Sequence record: AY753669.1
Reading direction: 5' to 3' (one strand)
Length of the DNA: 7,644 nucleotides
Source: Escherichia phage D6
Made by a program: the position numbers and the translations under genes. Shown here piece after piece: positions 1 through 7,644 of this stretch. Within the stretch, counting starts at the first letter, position 1; each line of letters opens with the position of its first letter. Below the pieces are notes generated by a model. That model saw only the letters and a list, made by a program, of their open reading frames with translations, was not told the origin of the DNA and ran no database searches.

Positions 1-5
1 TAGTA

Positions 6-263
6 ATGACCACCAGGGGGATGAGGGTTAGATTTCGCTGGAAAGCAGAGCAAGTAACGCCATTCAGAGAGCCATCAATGCCGCTGCAGGTTGAGCAGGA
101 TTATCTATGTTTACCAGAAATAGATGGAGGAATGCTGGTGGAGTCTGATGGTAGTAAGGCTGATTTTGAAGCCAATTTGAAGCTGGCACAGGCCGTAATC
201 AATAGTTATCGCGGAAAGTGGATCGCAAAAGTGAAACATGTTGTTCGTTTGTCTCGCTGGTAG
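6..263 (+). CDS. hypothetical protein, probably the 3' end of a gene that starts upstream of the window
   Basis: 85-codon ORF in the supplied track; the frame stays open to the window edge (no in-frame stop upstream of the ATG at 6), so the true start may lie outside. No motif recognised. Confidence 0.35.
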   Translation: MTTRGMRVRFRWKAEQVTPFREPSMPLQVEQDYLCLPEIDGGMLVESDGSKADFEANLKLAQAVINSYRGKWIAKVKHVVRLSRW

Positions 264-279
264 CATTAGGTATTTAATA

Positions 280-295
280 TTAATTTTCTAATACA
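280..295 (+). promoter_or_regulatory. copy 1 of a recurring 16-bp AT-rich motif (TTAATTTTCTAATACA); candidate repressor operator upstream of the 130-aa ORF
   Basis: Seen in sequence: 14/16 identical to the copy at 6123..6138 and 13/16 to the copy at 4713..4728, all in the same orientation and all in intergenic DNA just outside gene ends. Operator function is inference. Confidence 0.4.
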
Positions 296-371
296 ATCAT
301 CTTTTTACCAGTCTATACAGTTTTAACATTCTCATTATCATCCCCTCGGTCATTTCCTGCCCGGGGGATTA

Positions 372-764
372 ATGGAACAAATCAGCAGCGCAGAAATTGC
401 GGATATCATGATCAGGGCTGACTGCTATCTGACAGTCACTGAAATTACCACTCTCGCCAAAGAAAAATACCCTCATCTCCATGTTTCACGAGTAAGTGTA
501 ACTAACATCATTCGTCATTTTGTTCGTTCAAGCAGGGCAATCTGTGAGCTGGATGATCGTGTGTATCCACGAAAATACTGGCTACATGGTCTGAACGGAT
601 ATCAGTTCAAGGTGCGCGGGCGCACGCCTGAATACGGTAGCTTACTGGTTAAAAACTGTAGCAGGAAATCAGTCGAACAGGCGCGAAAAGAGCAACGAGA
701 GCTGGTGGACATGGCGAATAAGCTGTGGAATGCCGCCGTTAAAAAGCGTGGTGTTGCTTTATGA
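372..764 (+). CDS. hypothetical small basic protein, translationally coupled to pacA; positional counterpart of the P1 late-promoter activator gene lpa (unverified)
   Basis: 130-codon ORF; GGGGGA Shine-Dalgarno-like sequence 5 nt upstream of the ATG; its TGA stop (762..764) overlaps the pacA ATG (761..763) as ATGA. The lpa suggestion rests only on my recollection of P1 gene order, not on sequence similarity. Confidence 0.6.
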   Translation: MEQISSAEIADIMIRADCYLTVTEITTLAKEKYPHLHVSRVSVTNIIRHFVRSSRAICELDDRVYPRKYWLHGLNGYQFKVRGRTPEYGSLLVKNCSRKSVEQARKEQRELVDMANKLWNAAVKKRGVAL

Positions 765-2125
765 GTCTGGTTAATTGGGAGGAGCACCGCGCCCGCTTTA
801 TAGCGTTGCGTGAAGAAAAAGGGATCACTGTAAAGGAATACTGTGAGGAGCATGGCCTTAGCTTCAATACAGCCAGAAAGCATCTCAATATGAAAAAAAA
901 TGAGGTGCGGTCGCAGGTAAAGACAACAAAAAAAAGCACCAAATCACCTGAAAAAAAACGGGCGGGAAGAGCAACAAAAAAGCTGGAAGAGGGTGCAGAA
1001 AAAACAAAATTTACAGAAATTGACAATTCGCAGGGTGCAGGTTCTTTCCGAAGTATGCCAAGAAAGAAAACTTCGGATCATGAAAGTAATACCAATAATA
1101 ACAATGAGATAAAAGAATCTGTCAGGAGATCATTGCGCGAAAAAATGGCGAAAATGATCCCCGAAGAAGATAAAAGCGCCCCAAAAATTGAGGGATCTTC
1201 AGCAATGATCCCTGGCGGTGCTGTGCAGCGTGCCACATTGCCCACTACGAATGTGGCTCGCGATATGATGAAGAACGGCGCAGAAGAACACCTGCGGTTA
1301 GCAATTCAAATGGCGCAAGAGCGCGCACTTCAGTATCAAAGCATTGTTGATCAGGAGGCCGAACGTCTACAGGCGGAAATAGACGCCTTGGGCGATAAAG
1401 AGCCAGAAGGAATGCACCCTGGGCAGCGCCTTCTCGGTCTAATCAGTGACGCGGCCTACTACATGAATGATTTTATCAGTAGGTTGGCAGCTATATATCA
1501 GTCCGAACAAAAGCTGCGACAGGGGGATGAAAAGCTTCGTCAGAGCGCTCGCCAGCAAGCATTCAAAGAGGCTGAGGCCAGAGAAAAACTCGAATTAGCA
1601 CGCCTACAGGCCGAACAGCGTGGCAAAGAGATTGAATATCGCATTGGCGCTGACGCACGCGCTGCCAGAGTTATCGCCGCCGCTATACGTATGCGTGAGC
1701 GCGAGGAACTGGATGATATCGGTGTTGCTGAATACATCGAGCGCCAGGGGGTCAGCGTCCCGGCTATCCTCGCGGCGCGCGCGGCGAAAGCTATCACTCT
1801 TCTCGAACCACCTGTTTCTGACGTCAATGATGTTGATGATGAACAGCTGGACAAAGAGGCGAGGGAGTTTGCGACGCTTCAGGCTAACCATCCGCAATGG
1901 CTGGCAGAGCGCCGGGCGGATGTGGCAACCATTGTTGAAGAATTGGGGTGCGGAGATTACGACCGCAATGGCGAGCGTAAAGCTGGAGAATTCGAGGCCA
2001 ACGACGAAGAGCTGGATATTGACCCTTCGGCAACGGCTGATATTTACGGTGATTATGATGCATCTGATGCAGGGTATGACGCCGGAGATGATGATATCGC
2101 GATAGAACCGCCGGAGGATGATTAA
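761..2125 (+). CDS. pacA: terminase small subunit / pac-site recognition protein (PacA-like)
   Basis: 454-codon ORF immediately upstream of and overlapping (TAATG) the large-terminase gene. N-terminus (MSLVNWEEHRARFIALREEKGITVKEYCEEHGLSFNTARKHL) looks like a helix-turn-helix DNA-binding domain, followed by a Lys-rich low-complexity linker and a strongly acidic C-terminal tail (..DDDIAIEPPEDD), as expected for a small terminase. Contains a GATC-hexamer cluster (see 1075..1211). The P1 pacA assignment is by synteny and domain logic. Confidence 0.7.
   Translation: MSLVNWEEHRARFIALREEKGITVKEYCEEHGLSFNTARKHLNMKKNEVRSQVKTTKKSTKSPEKKRAGRATKKLEEGAEKTKFTEIDNSQGAGSFRSMPRKKTSDHESNTNNNNEIKESVRRSLREKMAKMIPEEDKSAPKIEGSSAMIPGGAVQRATLPTTNVARDMMKNGAEEHLRLAIQMAQERALQYQSIVDQEAERLQAEIDALGDKEPEGMHPGQRLLGLISDAAYYMNDFISRLAAIYQSEQKLRQGDEKLRQSARQQAFKEAEAREKLELARLQAEQRGKEIEYRIGADARAARVIAAAIRMREREELDDIGVAEYIERQGVSVPAILAARAAKAITLLEPPVSDVNDVDDEQLDKEAREFATLQANHPQWLAERRADVATIVEELGCGDYDRNGERKAGEFEANDEELDIDPSATADIYGDYDASDAGYDAGDDDIAIEPPEDD
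1075..1211. other. candidate pac (packaging cleavage) site: cluster of five GATC-containing hexamers inside the 5' third of pacA
   Basis: Seen in sequence: GATC at 1076, 1128, 1156, 1194 and 1207, i.e. five in about 135 bp, where chance predicts well under one. Hexamers read TGATCC (1155..1160 and 1206..1211 on top; 1075..1080 on bottom), TGATCT (1127..1132 bottom) and AGATCC (1193..1198 bottom). Established knowledge: the P1 pac site lies inside pacA and consists of repeated Dam-methylatable TGATCA/G hexamers flanking the cleavage point. Assignment here is by analogy. Confidence 0.35.
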
Positions 2126-3633
2126 TGGCTGGAGGGCGCAAGATTAAATGCGTCACCAGCGATCCACGCTGGCGCGATATGGTAATCAAATACCGCTACA
2201 ACTTTACCCAAGCTGTTGTCGATATTTTTGGGATGTTCCCCTCCCACCAGCAGCAGCAGATCATTCAGTCCGTGCAGGAAACGGGGAGTAGGACGACCGT
2301 CACGTCCGGACACGGAACGGGGAAGTCGTCCCTTACCGCGATGTTGCTGTTGATTTTCATGATCCTGTTCCCCGATGCCCGTGTCATCATTGTTGCTAAC
2401 AAGATAGGCCAGGTAAAAACAGGCGTATTCAAATACGTTAAACAGTATTGGGCGAATGCAGTTAAGCGTCATGGGTGGTTGCAGACCTATTTTGTCCTCT
2501 CTGACACCATGTTTTATGAGCGCTCCCGTAAGGGGATTTGGGAAGTTCTCTGCAAAGGTTATCGACTCGGCAACGAAGAAGCGCTGGCGGGGGAACACGC
2601 GGCACATTTGCTTCTAATTCTGGATGAAGCATCTGGTATATCTGATAAGGCGATCGGCGTAATGACCGGTGCTCTTACTGAAGAAGATAACCGGATGTTG
2701 ATGCTATCCCAGCCAACAAGGCCAAGTGGTTATTTCTACGATTCGCACCATTCTCAAGCAAAAACCCCAGACAACCCGAAAGGGATCTGGACAGCAATTG
2801 TTCTTAACTCGGAAGAATCACCGTTCGTCACACCACAATTCATCAAGCAGAAGCTTCTGGAATATGGCGGGCGCGATTCTATTGAGTACATGGTCAAGGT
2901 GCTTGGTCAGTTCCCACGAGAAATTAACGGCTATTTGCTTGGTCGTGATGAATGCGATCGCGCTGCTCGCCGCAAGGTGTTGTTGGAGAAAAACTGGGGA
3001 TGGGTGGCAACGGCTGACGTTGGTAATGGGCGAGATAAGTCGGTCCTCAACATCTGCAAGGTATCAGGTCACAGGGATAAGCGGCGCGTTGTTAACTTTA
3101 AGGTAATGGAGATGTCTGGCACTATGGACCCATTGGCCTTTGCTGACTTCATATATAACGAATGTACGCCGGAAAAATACCCGAATATAACAATCGCGGT
3201 TGATGCTGATGGTTTTGGTTCTGATACGTGTGCGCAGTTGGTGCGTCGTGGTGCGAACCCGGTACGTATTCGGTGGGGAAAACCCATGTTTGCGAACAAA
3301 GACAGGGAGCGATTTGTTAATCAGCGTGCCTACGCAAATATTATGGCGCGTGATGCCATAAAGTCAGGGCGTATGCGGATAGACAGTGACCCTAAAACGG
3401 CAGAGCAAGCGTCAAAAATCCCCTTTTTACTGAATGAAGAAGGGAAAATGGCGATGATGCGCAAAGAGCACATGCGGCAAAAGCTAAACATCAAATCGCC
3501 TGACCGATGGGATACCTACTGCTTCACTATGCTGGTGGACTATGTGCCTGCTAATGAAGATATTGGTGCCGAAATGGCAACTTTCCGAGATCAGGTTCTG
3601 GCGGATATCGAAATGCCGGATCTGGATATATAA
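2125..3633 (+). CDS. pacB: terminase large subunit (PacB-like; ATPase plus nuclease)
   Basis: 502-codon ORF. Walker A-like P-loop (VTSGHGTGKSSL) and Walker B-like hydrophobic stretch ending in DE (LLLILDEASG) in the N-terminal half; acidic nuclease-type segments in the C-terminal half (IAVDADGFGSD). Start overlaps the pacA stop (TAATG). Confidence 0.85.
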   Translation: MAGGRKIKCVTSDPRWRDMVIKYRYNFTQAVVDIFGMFPSHQQQQIIQSVQETGSRTTVTSGHGTGKSSLTAMLLLIFMILFPDARVIIVANKIGQVKTGVFKYVKQYWANAVKRHGWLQTYFVLSDTMFYERSRKGIWEVLCKGYRLGNEEALAGEHAAHLLLILDEASGISDKAIGVMTGALTEEDNRMLMLSQPTRPSGYFYDSHHSQAKTPDNPKGIWTAIVLNSEESPFVTPQFIKQKLLEYGGRDSIEYMVKVLGQFPREINGYLLGRDECDRAARRKVLLEKNWGWVATADVGNGRDKSVLNICKVSGHRDKRRVVNFKVMEMSGTMDPLAFADFIYNECTPEKYPNITIAVDADGFGSDTCAQLVRRGANPVRIRWGKPMFANKDRERFVNQRAYANIMARDAIKSGRMRIDSDPKTAEQASKIPFLLNEEGKMAMMRKEHMRQKLNIKSPDRWDTYCFTMLVDYVPANEDIGAEMATFRDQVLADIEMPDLDI

Positions 3634-3634
3634 A

Positions 3635-3651
3635 GCCCCGCGATGCGGGGC
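3635..3651. terminator. hairpin between the convergent pacB and 345-aa genes; possible bidirectional intrinsic terminator
   Basis: Perfect 7-bp stem GCCCCGC / GCGGGGC with a 3-nt loop (GAT), directly after the pacB stop and directly after the stop of the - strand gene (3661). There is a T/A-rich run on the - strand side (TTATATAT) but no clean U-tract on the + side. Confidence 0.45.
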
Positions 3652-3660
3652 CGGTTGTGA

Positions 3661-4698
3661 TTACCAGAGCTTCGCGGCGTACTGCGTTTGGGGGAATGTG
3701 TATCCGTAACGTTCTTCGATTGCTTTGCCGTATTTTTTACGAGCTTCATTCAGTTTAATGCCGGTCAGGTCGTCTCCAGAGGCCATCATTACGTCTAACA
3801 ATTCCAGATCCATTTTATCCAGCCTTGCCATTGCTTCACGTGATGTACGTATCTTACGCTCAATGATATGGCGAATAGCCGGATCGGCATCCTCCAGCAT
3901 CTTAGCGGATTTCTGCTTAAGGCTTTCATTGCGAATATCGATGTTCCTTAAGATGTACGACTTCGCAACGTAGCTTGGCTGGTGTTTTTCCAGGTCACGA
4001 ACACGATATAAGTTAAAATCGCCGAGAAGGCTGCAAGGTACCGATTCGACGCCAGAATAAATTGTAATGCTCCGGCGTTCACCAACATTATTGACAACGG
4101 GGATCGTTGTCTTCGGTAGTCTTGCGAAAACCAATGCGCCATGTGCGCCAACTCTAAAGCGAGAAAGGGCATTGCTGCCTTCGATGTTTGTTGTCAGCAC
4201 AACATCTGTATATGCCTCTTTACGCGCCCGGTAGATCTCGCCTTCAGGCTCAGCTTCAAAGAAGCGCTGTTCTTCTTCAAGAGCACCTACGATTTGAGAA
4301 AAAACCCTATTTTTCAGGCTTTTCTTTATGATTTTGTCGTATTTTTTTAGCAATTGTTCACGTGTAAATGTACGTGTTGTTGTAGCGCTTTGCACAACGA
4401 CATGCGTGCTTTGATTGGTGTCCTCAATGATGAATGGGATCGGAGAATATACAGACTCAACAATGTTCGACGCTTTGCCGTCGGCATCGCGGCACATGTC
4501 AACGAAGGCTTTCCATTCAGCAAGACATTTTTCAGCTTCTTCTAATATGTTTTGGTCATGCGTTAATGCAACATGGCGGAATTCCTCGCCAGCATAACTG
4601 GTATCATGGAAAACAGAGTTTGCGACCACCAGCTCTTTCCACCGTTCAGCGGTTTGCAGGAACCGTTTGTACTCTTTCTCGATCGACTTCTTACTCAT
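3661..4698 (-). CDS. c1: 345-aa protein at the immC position; putative C1-type immunity repressor by synteny (function unverified)
   Basis: Long - strand ORF convergent with pacB and divergent from the recombinase; AGGA Shine-Dalgarno-like sequence a few nt upstream of the ATG. In P1 the gene between pacB and loxP-cre is c1. I see no motif that proves repressor function, so CDS existence is about 0.85 and the C1 identity about 0.4. Confidence 0.55.
   Translation of the reverse strand: MSKKSIEKEYKRFLQTAERWKELVVANSVFHDTSYAGEEFRHVALTHDQNILEEAEKCLAEWKAFVDMCRDADGKASNIVESVYSPIPFIIEDTNQSTHVVVQSATTTRTFTREQLLKKYDKIIKKSLKNRVFSQIVGALEEEQRFFEAEPEGEIYRARKEAYTDVVLTTNIEGSNALSRFRVGAHGALVFARLPKTTIPVVNNVGERRSITIYSGVESVPCSLLGDFNLYRVRDLEKHQPSYVAKSYILRNIDIRNESLKQKSAKMLEDADPAIRHIIERKIRTSREAMARLDKMDLELLDVMMASGDDLTGIKLNEARKKYGKAIEERYGYTFPQTQYAAKLW
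3807..3885. repeat. 79-bp GATC-bounded segment inside the 345-aa gene that recurs in inverted orientation at 7309..7387 and 7566..7644
   Basis: Seen in sequence: the reverse complement of 3807..3885 is identical, base for base, to 7309..7387. It begins and ends with GATC. Confidence 0.9.
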
Positions 4699-4712
4699 TA
4701 TTCCTACTCGAT

Positions 4713-4728
4713 TTAGTTTTCTAACATA
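4713..4728 (+). promoter_or_regulatory. copy 2 of the 16-bp motif (TTAGTTTTCTAACATA); candidate operator in the leader of the 345-aa gene
   Basis: 13/16 identical to the copies at 280..295 and 6123..6138; lies 15 to 30 bp upstream of the - strand gene start. Confidence 0.4.
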
Positions 4729-4797
4729 AAATTACTATGACAAATTTATGTCGAATAACAGAGTGAGTAAAGGATCGAACTGTGATTTTTTGTCATC

Positions 4798-4813
4798 AAT
4801 TTTAGAAAACCAA
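4798..4813 (-). promoter_or_regulatory. copy 3 of the 16-bp motif, weaker and inverted (reads TTGGTTTTCTAAAATT on the - strand)
   Basis: Shares the TTTTCTAA core; 13/16 to the degenerate consensus TTA[AG][TA]TTTCTAA[CT]A[CT]A; about 70 bp from copy 2 in the same intergenic region. Confidence 0.3.
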
Positions 4814-4908
4814 CCGTAGAAACCACACTTCGCTAATTAAAGACCATGAAGGCAACGTGTTACTGGTCATCATCAATCTATGATGGATTAAAAAAAATCG
4901 GCATTTTA

Positions 4909-4940
4909 TAACTTTAAATAATTGGCATTATTTAAAGTTA
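4909..4940. other. rox: rox site: 32-bp recombination target of Dre (14-bp perfect inverted arms around a 4-bp asymmetric spacer)
   Basis: Seen in sequence: TAACTTTAAATAAT-TGGC-ATTATTTAAAGTTA. This is the exact reverse complement of the rox site as I recall it (TAACTTTAAATAATGCCAATTATTTAAAGTTA). Including the flanking A at 4908, one arm matches the loxP arm ATAACTTCGTATA at 10/13 positions. It lies about 150 bp upstream of the recombinase gene. Confidence 0.85.
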
Positions 4941-4949
4941 GGCTATAAT
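4922..4949 (+). promoter_or_regulatory. candidate sigma70 promoter reading toward the recombinase gene, overlapping rox
   Basis: -35 TTGGCA (4922..4927, spanning the rox spacer), 16-bp spacer, perfect -10 TATAAT (4944..4949). Established knowledge: P1 cre has multiple promoters in the loxP-proximal region. Activity is not demonstrated. Confidence 0.4.
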
Positions 4950-5092
4950 CATGTGTAGATGAACAGTATTGACATCACTGAAAATACGTACCTCCAATCA
5001 AAGGCTTGTATTTTGAAAATTAACTTATAGCTACCCTGTCATTTTTATATTTTTCGCGTAGCGTCATCTGTATATAGAGGTGAAATGGTTTC

Positions 5093-6121
5093 ATGAGTGA
5101 ATTAATTATCTCTGGCAGTTCCGGTGGTTTTCTGCGCAACATTGGCAAAGAGTACCAGGAAGCCGCAGAAAACTTTATGCGGTTCATGAATGATCAGGGT
5201 GCTTATGCGCCGAATACTCTGCGCGACCTCCGGTTGGTGTTTCATTCCTGGGCGCGCTGGTGTCACGCTCGCCAGCTTGCCTGGTTTCCGATCTCACCAG
5301 AAATGGCCCGCGAGTATTTTCTTCAGTTGCATGATGCCGATCTGGCTTCGACCACCATTGATAAGCACTACGCCATGCTTAACATGCTGCTTTCTCATTG
5401 TGGCCTTCCGCCACTTTCGGATGATAAAAGTGTTTCTCTGGCTATGCGGCGTATCCGGCGCGAAGCGGCAACGGAAAAAGGCGAACGAACAGGCCAGGCT
5501 ATACCGCTGCGATGGGACGACCTGAAACTGCTCGACGTCCTGTTGTCCAGGTCAGAACGGCTGGTGGACCTGCGCAACCGGGCTTTTCTCTTTGTTGCAT
5601 ACAATACGCTGATGCGTATGTCGGAAATCTCGCGTATTCGTGTAGGAGATCTGGACCAAACAGGTGACACTGTCACGCTACATATTTCACACACGAAGAC
5701 AATAACGACCGCCGCCGGGCTTGATAAGGTGCTTTCCCGTCGCACTACTGCTGTGCTGAATGACTGGCTGGATGTTTCCGGGCTTCGTGAACATCCTGAC
5801 GCGGTGCTGTTCCCGCCGATACACCGTAGCAATAAGGCCAGGATTACGACAACGCCCCTTACTGCACCTGCAATGGAGAAAATATTCAGCGACGCCTGGG
5901 TGTTGCTGAATAAAAGGGATGCCACGCCAAACAAAGGGAGATACCGGACGTGGACCGGGCATAGTGCTCGTGTCGGGGCCGCTATCGATATGGCTGAAAA
6001 GCAGGTGTCTATGGTGGAGATTATGCAGGAAGGAACCTGGAAGAAACCGGAAACACTTATGCGGTATCTGCGCCGTGGCGGTGTGTCTGTGGGGGCTAAT
6101 AGCCGCTTGATGGATTCATAA
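5093..6121 (+). CDS. dre: Dre, a Cre-family tyrosine site-specific recombinase (rox-specific)
   Basis: 342-codon ORF, GAGGTG Shine-Dalgarno-like sequence about 9 nt upstream. Clear Cre-like sequence throughout (e.g. SVSLAMRRIRRE, RNRAFLFVAYNTLMRMSEISRIRVGDL, TGHSARVGAAIDMA, EIMQEGTWKKPETLMRYLRR), with the Cre catalytic Arg, His-x-x-Arg, Trp and Tyr positions conserved. The N-terminus MSELIISGSS and the adjacent exact rox site identify it as Dre rather than Cre. Confidence 0.9.
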   Translation: MSELIISGSSGGFLRNIGKEYQEAAENFMRFMNDQGAYAPNTLRDLRLVFHSWARWCHARQLAWFPISPEMAREYFLQLHDADLASTTIDKHYAMLNMLLSHCGLPPLSDDKSVSLAMRRIRREAATEKGERTGQAIPLRWDDLKLLDVLLSRSERLVDLRNRAFLFVAYNTLMRMSEISRIRVGDLDQTGDTVTLHISHTKTITTAAGLDKVLSRRTTAVLNDWLDVSGLREHPDAVLFPPIHRSNKARITTTPLTAPAMEKIFSDAWVLLNKRDATPNKGRYRTWTGHSARVGAAIDMAEKQVSMVEIMQEGTWKKPETLMRYLRRGGVSVGANSRLMDS

Positions 6122-6122
6122 A

Positions 6123-6138
6123 TTAAATTTCTAACACA
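6123..6138 (+). promoter_or_regulatory. copy 4 of the 16-bp motif (TTAAATTTCTAACACA); candidate operator between dre and the downstream operon
   Basis: Begins 2 bp after the dre stop codon, about 55 bp upstream of the next ORF; 14/16 identical to copy 1. Confidence 0.4.
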
Positions 6139-6194
6139 TCTTTTTAGATTGATATCTTTGCTGTAAAGTACCCTCGCCTATTTTGGAGGGTGCT

Positions 6195-6539
6195 TTGCAG
6201 AGTCAAATCACGGAATCAAGACGCTTCACGGTGGATGGTTACACCGTAACCTTCGCCGCTGGTGTTAAGAACAGTCATGCTGTCGTTGTATTCGGCATCA
6301 TGACCGGGCTTGAGGCCGTCCCTGTGTTTACCCTCGAAAAAAACTGGCGAAATCTGGAGGAAGCAGAAAGCTACGTCCGGAAAGTAACCATCATTGCCGC
6401 CGAAAAACTCCTGGCCCACTATCAGGAAAATTATCGCACTATGGTCGAGAAGATTAATCTCGCTTTCACTCGCCCCACTACCGGCTTTATTGCACCGGAT
6501 ACTAATGCAGGTCGATATCCGGCAAGGGGGCGTCGGTGA
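6195..6539 (+). CDS. hypothetical protein (about 114 to 118 aa), first gene of a small operon downstream of dre
   Basis: ORF in the track from 6183. There is no in-frame ATG near the 5' end; the TTG at 6195 is preceded by GGAGGG (6185..6190) at good spacing, so I place the start there (alternatives: TTG 6183, GTG 6231). Its stop overlaps the GTG start of the next ORF (GTGA at 6536..6539). No recognisable motif. Confidence 0.5.
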   Translation: MQSQITESRRFTVDGYTVTFAAGVKNSHAVVVFGIMTGLEAVPVFTLEKNWRNLEEAESYVRKVTIIAAEKLLAHYQENYRTMVEKINLAFTRPTTGFIAPDTNAGRYPARGRR

Positions 6540-7012
6540 AAACTTATTACCCATCTCTGAATTGTTACCCGTCTTCCTATCCAGGATTGTCCGGGAAGCT
6601 GTTAGCTCTATTAGCTAAAGCACCTACGGAATGGTTTAAGCCAGTCGTTATCAATCCACACTTCCTGGATTACGGATCTGTTCGCACTCGTAACGAACTC
6701 AAAAACCTACTGGCGCATGGATTCATTCGACACCGTGCCGGTAAAGGCTATCAGTTATCGATTGCGCCAGAAGAGGCCGTGCGGCTATTCGCATATCGTG
6801 ACAGCCAGACAAAAGCTCGGGTAATAGCTCAAATACTTCATAACGGCAGCACCTATGCCCGCCAGTTTGGCGGCGACACGTCGCAGTTCTTGCGGGCGGT
6901 GCGATCGCTGGAGGAGCAAGGAGTTATTGAAAGTTCCTGTCTTCCTGTTCCAACCGTTCCACATATCAAACGTCGGGTTTACACCTTCACGCAGAGAGCT
7001 AAAAAACAATGA
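6536..7012 (+). CDS. hypothetical protein (158 aa), GTG start, translationally coupled both upstream and downstream
   Basis: ORF in the track; GTGA overlap with the previous ORF and ATGA overlap (7009..7012) with the dUTPase-like gene. Composition is protein-like; no motif recognised with confidence. Confidence 0.55.
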   Translation: MKTYYPSLNCYPSSYPGLSGKLLALLAKAPTEWFKPVVINPHFLDYGSVRTRNELKNLLAHGFIRHRAGKGYQLSIAPEEAVRLFAYRDSQTKARVIAQILHNGSTYARQFGGDTSQFLRAVRSLEEQGVIESSCLPVPTVPHIKRRVYTFTQRAKKQ

Positions 7013-7455
7013 TTTACGTAAAAGTGAAACGCCTACATCCGGCAGCAAAACTTCCAGCTTATGCCACCTCCGGATCGGCGGCGATGGATTTTGAGGCTGT
7101 TGAAATAAAACCATGTGTCGATAGCAATGGTGCAATTTCCTCAAGCTGGTGGGTGTACACCGGATTGGCTATGGAGATCCCGCCCGGCTGGTGTCTGAAA
7201 CTCTATCCGCGATCCGGATTGGGCTGCAAAAAACATACTCGCCTGGCTAACTGCGTAGGAATTATCGACTCCGATTATCGCGGCGAAATCATGGCAAAAC
7301 TGATTACTGATCCGGCTATTCGCCATATCATTGAGCGTAAGATACGTACATCACGTGAAGCAATGGCAAGGCTGGATAAAATGGATCTGCAATTTCCTCA
7401 AGCTGGTGGGTGTACACCGGATTGGCTATGGAGATCCCGCCCGGCTGGTGTCTGA
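7009..7455 (+). CDS. dut: dUTPase-family gene (trimeric dUTPase motifs I-III) whose 3' part is replaced or disrupted after codon 100
   Basis: N-terminal 100 aa carry dUTPase hallmarks: ..LPAYATSGSAAMDF.. (motif I region), YPRSGLG (motif II), GIIDSDYRGE (motif III). Motifs IV and V are absent. From 7309 the reading frame runs into the inverted 79-bp copy of the 345-aa gene fragment (reading DPAIRHIIERKIRTSREAMARLDKMDL) and then into an out-of-frame second copy of dut sequence, ending at 7455. The 148-aa ORF as drawn is therefore chimeric; it may be a pseudogene or an artefact. Confidence 0.55.
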   Translation: MIYVKVKRLHPAAKLPAYATSGSAAMDFEAVEIKPCVDSNGAISSSWWVYTGLAMEIPPGWCLKLYPRSGLGCKKHTRLANCVGIIDSDYRGEIMAKLITDPAIRHIIERKIRTSREAMARLDKMDLQFPQAGGCTPDWLWRSRPAGV

Positions 7456-7644
7456 AACTCTATCCGCGATCCGGATTGGGCTGCAAAAAACATACTCGCC
7501 TGGCTAACTGCGTAGGAATTATCGACTCCGATTATCGCGGCGAAATCATGGCAAAACTGATTACTGATCCGGCTATTCGCCATATCATTGAGCGTAAGAT
7601 ACGTACATCACGTGAAGCAATGGCAAGGCTGGATAAAATGGATC
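7131..7644. repeat. perfect tandem direct duplication, 2 x 257 bp (7131..7387 and 7388..7644), ending exactly at the window edge
   Basis: Seen in sequence: the two copies are identical base for base. Each copy is 178 bp of dut coding sequence plus the 79-bp inverted fragment of the 345-aa gene. The identical antisense 61-aa ORFs at 7141..7326 and 7398..7583 in the track are a by-product. Confidence 0.9.
7309..7387. repeat. inverted copy of 3807..3885 (79 bp, GATC-bounded); a second identical copy lies at 7566..7644
   Basis: Exact reverse-complement identity to 3807..3885, verified by hand. Confidence 0.9.

Follow-up and report, generated by a model that had tools for sequence, protein, structure and literature searches.

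Introduction

Inserts assembled from Sau3AI partial digests and cloned in BamHI-type sites can be chimeric: a complete GATC-to-GATC piece of the same DNA, in an arbitrary orientation, is joined to the main fragment at one of the native GATC sites of the latter, the sequence breaks off at the following GATC, and an independent sequencing of the genome does not show the resulting structure. Compilation errors at contig ends have other characteristics, namely perfect identity between the copies, a repeat unit whose start does not correspond to any site and a repeat that runs to the very last base. Tandem duplications mediated by microhomology (FoSTeS/MMBIR, slipped misalignment) present homologies at their junctions and can include a short inverted segment originating from a few kilobases away; such short inverted templated insertions, at the junctions of tandem duplications, are a signature of template switching.

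The sequence record AY753669 of Escherichia phage D6, which was named in two papers as an incomplete D6 record bearing dre, ends with a structure that can be compared with all of these. We analyzed the whole stretch of 7644 nt (hereafter the window). As in co-ligated Sau3AI inserts, the end of the record contains a complete GATC-to-GATC piece of the same DNA, here inverted, which is joined at a native GATC, is followed by the end of the sequence at the next GATC and is missing from the independently determined D6 genome; unlike a simple co-ligation, which would leave one copy, the terminal 257 bp are present twice and the junction between the repeats is not GATC-GATC. As in contig-end compilation errors, the copies are perfectly identical, the unit starts at a position without a site and the repeat extends to the last base, but a blind paste does not predict the similarity (6 of 7 nucleotides) observed at the repeat junction. 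A short inverted segment from a few kilobases away is also found, as in microhomology-mediated duplications, with short homologies at both junctions that may be of the same kind; nevertheless, in contrast to FoSTeS/MMBIR products, the insert is bounded by restriction sites and follows both copies, the native sequence never resumes and no independent genome has the structure. In comparison with the native D6-type dut gene, which codes for a trimeric dUTPase (PF00692), codons 1-102 are identical, and codons 103-164 give way to a fusion of Dut with C1 and, after it, to dut sequence out of frame.

Relationship between the record and the complete D6 genome

The P1-like phage-plasmid D6 (MF356679/NC_050154) was identified by megablast as the source of the window. 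Positions 1-4924 are the reverse complement of MF356679 1-4924, with 100% identity, and positions 4925-7313 correspond, also as reverse complement and with 0 mismatches, to the adjoining end of the circular MF356679 sequence. String comparison with MF356679 showed that the first base departing from native D6 is 7314, and the 331-nt tail that starts there stands in place of the last 186 nt of dut and of everything downstream. The gene order in the window is pacA-pacB-c1-rox-dre-dut (Table 1), and we take the record to be the pac-c1 region record of Sauer and McDermott (NAR, 2004).

The left end of the window begins with TAGTAATGA (positions 1-9), which corresponds to three consecutive stop codons. 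This end does not have a GATC, the nearest upstream one in the D6 genome being located approximately 60 nt before position 1, and it is not a Sau3AI clone end; the record does not, therefore, correspond simply to a single Sau3AI insert.

The rox site has perfect 14-bp inverted arms (TAACTTTAAATAAT and ATTATTTAAAGTTA) separated by the spacer TGGC, and is located approximately 150 bp upstream of the gene coding for the Cre-like recombinase. In MF356679, the two rox halves (1-16 and 91144-91159) are both labelled "right half of rox site"; one of these labels should name the left half instead. The D6 prophage repressor, encoded by c1, is composed of 345 amino acid residues and has no Pfam match at E <= 0.01. 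Inside pacA, we noticed five GATC sequences within 135 bp (1076, 1128, 1156, 1194 and 1207), mostly in NGATCN hexamers, such as GGATCA, AGATCA and TGATCC. This cluster resembles the clusters of Dam-methylated hexamers of the P1 pac site, and the region 1076-1210 may constitute a candidate D6 pac site.

Table 1. Positions of the annotated genes, of the repeat and of the c1-derived segments in the 7644-nt window.
Feature	Position	Strand	Basis or composition
lpa	372-764		MF356679 annotation
pacA	761-2125		MF356679 annotation
pacB	2125-3633		MF356679 annotation
c1 prophage repressor	3661-4698	minus	MF356679: "prophage repressor, similar to P1 C1"
Insert source	3807-3885	minus	One GATC-to-GATC fragment inside c1; encodes DPAIRHIIERKIRTSREAMARLDKMD
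rox site	4909-4940		14-bp inverted arms and 4-bp spacer
Cre-like tyrosine recombinase (dre)	5093-6121		Pfam PF00589
orf117 and orf116	Listed between dre and dut		MF356679 annotation
dut start	7009		MF356679 annotation
Native 5' part of dut	7009-7313	+	Codons 1-102 of 164; last stretch that agrees with MF356679
Repeat copy 1	7131-7387	+	dut 7131-7308 and inverted c1 fragment 7309-7387
Inverted c1 fragment, copy 1	7309-7387	+	GATC at both ends; exact reverse complement of 3807-3885
Non-native tail, 331 nt	7314-7644	+	Alignment and string comparison with native D6
Junction J2	7384-7394	+	GATC/TGCAATT, end of the c1 fragment to dut 7131
Repeat copy 2	7388-7644	+	Identical to copy 1; final base at a GATC
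Inverted c1 fragment, copy 2	7566-7644	+	Arms with 3807-3885: 79 nt, 100% complementary

The terminal repeat and its c1-derived segment

Tandem Repeats Finder identified at 7131-7644 a repeat with a period of 257, 2.0 copies, 100% matches, 0 indels and a score of 1028, and both the repeat search and a direct string comparison gave 0 mismatches between the two 257-bp copies; such a repeat cannot have a chance origin. These results agree with a previous sequence-only reading of the window, in which a perfect tandem duplication was described, with a second copy that runs to the last of the 7644 bases and a unit composed of 178 nt of dut and a 79-nt insert that has GATC ends; in copy 1, we located these ends at 7309-7312 and 7384-7387. 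The same reading considered the 79-bp insert as foreign, which it is not, since its sequence is the exact reverse complement of a segment of c1 located 3.4 kb upstream. In the list of sites of the window, 3807 and 3882 are consecutive GATC positions, and the c1 piece thus corresponds to an entire Sau3AI/MboI-type fragment, from one GATC to the next.

At the first novel junction (J1), the c1 piece joins dut at the native dut GATC. The breakpoint can be placed only to within 7309-7313, because GATCC is common to dut and to the c1 piece. In an alignment with D6, the Salmonella plasmid pYU39_89 and two Escherichia coli plasmids, all four sequences run on as ...ACTGATCC/CGGCGGGGAAGG, and the window alone turns into c1 sequence directly after ACTGATCC. 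After the dut segment of copy 2, the native dut continuation CGGCGGGG does not resume; it is again the c1 piece that follows, and the record stops at its far GATC (...TGGATC). We roughly estimated that the coincidence of both ends of the c1 piece and of the dut breakpoint with GATC sites would otherwise have a probability of about 1e-4 or less.

The second novel junction (J2, 7387/7388), between the two copies, is different. It reads GGATC/TGCAATTTCC, while native dut before 7131 reads ATGG (ATGG/TGCAATT), and GATCTGCAATT is absent from both strands of the entire 91-kb D6 genome. J2 did not, therefore, arise from the sticky-end joining of native fragments, and the possibility that some other native piece of D6 was ligated there, GATC to GATC, was also ruled out, since GATCTGCAATT is nowhere in D6. 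The native continuation of c1 past the GATC is TGGAATT, which matches the dut sequence TGCAATT at J2 in six of seven nucleotides, and positions that match TGGAATT at 6/7 or better are rare in the window (only 9 of 7253, approximately 0.1%). This similarity is either fortuitous, with a chance of about 1 in 1000, or the trace of a microhomology-guided join, and it hints at a physical join of the latter type rather than at a purely in-silico paste. When a wider gapped context was scored, position 7131 ranked 270 of 7253, notable similarity being present only in the 7 nt directly downstream. In addition, the TG(C/G)AATT homology is relevant only if the c1 piece extended beyond its GATC, and it is at that GATC that the record ends.

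Two other sources of a terminal repeat were considered. A terminal overlap of a circular contig was ruled out, as the start and the end of the window do not have a common sequence. Sau3AI fragments closed into a circle of 257 bp and read twice, as in inverse PCR or rolling circle, were rejected because 7131 is not a GATC and no fragment combination sums to 257 bp: the fragments that run from site 7176 or site 7073 up to 7309 give, with 75 bp added, 208 or 311 bp, respectively.

The dut gene and its chimeric product

The complete D6 genome contains a single intact dut gene, whose product (MF356679 orf115/WP_001557737.1) has 164 amino acid residues and aligns with the dUTPase family of Pfam (PF00692) over profile positions 4-128 of 129, with 55.5 bits. 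The corresponding ORF of the window, 7009-7455, is not full-length with respect to this family, as it aligns only over profile positions 4-81 of 129, with 27.5 bits. It codes for 148 amino acid residues, of which 1-102 are identical to native Dut; codons 103-164 and the stop codon of dut are missing from the window. The c1 piece is read in the own frame of the C1 protein within this ORF and contributes 24 residues (DPAIRHIIERKIRTSREAMARLDKMD). In the window, a genuine dut gene is present in truncated, chimeric form. It had been proposed from the sequence that the out-of-frame second copy truncates dut. The stop codon, at 7453-7455, is indeed located in that copy, but the c1 piece has by then already disrupted the gene, at codon 102.

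The chimeric ORF is present in NCBI nr as AAV84952.1, "probable dUTPase [Escherichia phage D6]", composed of Dut residues 1-102, the 24 C1-repressor residues and a frameshifted tail. This 148-residue protein forms a singleton cluster, being known only as AAV84952.1, and is on no assembled contig. The native 164-residue Dut is on at least 1000 contigs, and its cluster has 506 members, with 164 amino acid residues in every member listed.

Search for the junctions in other genomes

The junctions were searched with a 201-nt query that spans J1 and J2, for which a coverage of at least 80% was required. No record reached this coverage among the 101 matching E. coli plasmids (from 5426 complete genomes) or among the 125 matching PLSDB plasmids of Escherichia, Salmonella and Shigella; all of these approximately 226 related plasmids match the separate dut and c1 pieces only. 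Neither J1 nor J2 is present in the complete D6 genome, MF356679. The junction-spanning 30-mers (GGATAAAATGGATCTGCAATTTCCTCAAGC and CTGATTACTGATCCGGCTATTCGCCATATC) were not found in IMG/VR, and a 20-mer of J2 was not found in the GTDB genome set. The J2 20-mer has four matches in JGI metagenomes, all with unrelated flanks.

A 23-mer of J1 gave one match in GTDB, in a Saccharibacteria MAG (CAYGIW010000011.1, 5923-5947), where the identity extends exactly over 25 nt (GATTACTGATCCGGCTATTCGCCAT). Comparison of CAYGIW010000011.1 with the window by blastn showed, beyond these 25 nt, only short matches at chance level, with unrelated flanks. We consider this match a coincidence, approximately 1e-3 such matches being expected by chance in 596 Gb, according to our estimate. 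The tandem structure was, thus, not seen in independent isolates, as no record spans the junctions and the chimeric protein is on no contig.

Origin of the last 331 bases

We propose, with a probability of about 0.9, that the last 331 bases of the record are an artefact of the cloning and compiling of a partial D6 record and do not belong to the D6 genome, because a single, intact dUTPase gene occupies this position in the complete genome of D6 as well as in more than 200 related plasmids. A cloning or assembly artefact was also the leading explanation in the sequence-only reading, and the c1 piece bounded by GATC, the native D6 genome, the relatives free of the junctions and the singleton protein all speak for it. 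That reading gave as an example a ligation chimera from a partial digest with a GATC-cutting enzyme, which accounts for the dut-c1 chimera but not for the duplication, as J2 is not a GATC-GATC join. Restriction and ligation are consistent with the location of both ends of the insert at GATC sites of its source, with the dut breakpoint at a native GATC and with the absence of the junctions from the independent D6 genome and its relatives; a site-to-site join was found at J1, and J2 is the novel junction that departs from this pattern. Since J2 is not of the ligation type, the duplication requires a second step beyond co-ligation.

In the first step, D6 DNA would have been cut by a Sau3AI-type enzyme that recognizes GATC (a Sau3AI library being suggested by the sequence), and a genomic fragment ending at the GATC of dut codon 101 (7309) would have been co-ligated with the inverted 79-bp c1 fragment. 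The far GATC of this small fragment would abut the vector (a BamHI-type arm), whose sequence would have been trimmed at that point, and the end of the record at ...GGATC would be explained by this proposed adjacency. A chimeric insert of the Sau3AI type is well supported by the sites found at the ends of the pieces. In the second step, we infer that the stretch between 7131 and the junction with the vector, which makes up the last 257 bases, was included twice in the deposited sequence. The likeliest route would be the appending of a read to a contig that already contained that read; the alternative route would be the formation of a head-to-tail amplicon dimer, or slippage, in the recombinant plasmid. 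A length of 257 nt is approximately that of one walking read after trimming of the vector, or of one amplicon, and the start of the unit at 7131 follows no site logic.

The alternative route implies that the duplication is still an artefact, one physically present in the recombinant DNA and not created in silico, which is possible, although we give it less than an even chance. It could have arisen as a blunt head-to-tail dimer of a PCR product of 257 bp, with one primer at 7131 and the other at the GATC end, or by slipped misalignment or template switch in an E. coli plasmid clone, through the TG(C/G)AATT similarity. The rarity of the six-of-seven match at J2, the perfect identity of the copies and the fact that each end of the unit could be the end of a primer are compatible with a physical origin. 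Nevertheless, the use of the microhomology would require that the c1 piece passed the GATC at 3807, and the end of the record exactly at that GATC would then be unexpected; moreover, a physical duplication and an in-silico paste leave the same picture in the sequence.

The possibility that the D6 stock of 2004 truly carried an array of the dut segment and the inverted c1 segment, generated very recently by FoSTeS/MMBIR-like template switching between dut and c1, seems very unlikely to us, as does its corollary, that a real array was later lost, or was absent in the lineage behind the complete genome of 2017. The short inverted templated insertion fits the known signature of such a rearrangement, and short homology is seen at both junctions (GATCC and TG.AATT), but the ends of the piece fall exactly on two neighbouring GATC sites and dut is also broken at a GATC, the insert recurs after the dut segment of copy 2 and the record ends without a return to native dut. 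The structure is also missing from a complete D6 genome that is 100% identical over 7313 nt, as well as from the relatives searched and from assembled contigs. The insertion of a small mobile or foreign element of 79 bp in dut, followed by duplication, has a negligible probability: the 5-nt inverted termini (GATCC...GGATC) recall those of an element, but they reflect merely the palindromic GATC, and the piece is an exact inverted copy of c1 coding sequence, read in the C1 frame. No target-site duplication was found, nor copies of the 79-bp piece besides the c1 coding sequence itself, and dut is free of the insertion in the D6 genome and in the related plasmids searched. A rearrangement mediated by Dre and rox was rejected as well. 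Good rox half-sites are confined to the two arms of the rox site, a weak match with three mismatches being present at 6923-6936, and there is no rox-like half-site near 3807, 3885, 7131, 7309 or 7387; Dre is, therefore, not implicated.

Implications for the use of the record

The importance of the cloning and compilation artefact is one of database hygiene only. Dre and rox, a recombinase and target site in wide use, have this record as their source sequence, and both are identical to their counterparts in the complete D6 genome and, therefore, unaffected. The spurious last 331 bases have already given rise to a deposited chimeric protein, AAV84952.1; the record is best trimmed at 7313, and the dut sequence should come from MF356679/NC_050154. 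The 257-bp repeat is not a genuine phage feature and is without function in D6, and phage biology should not be inferred from it.
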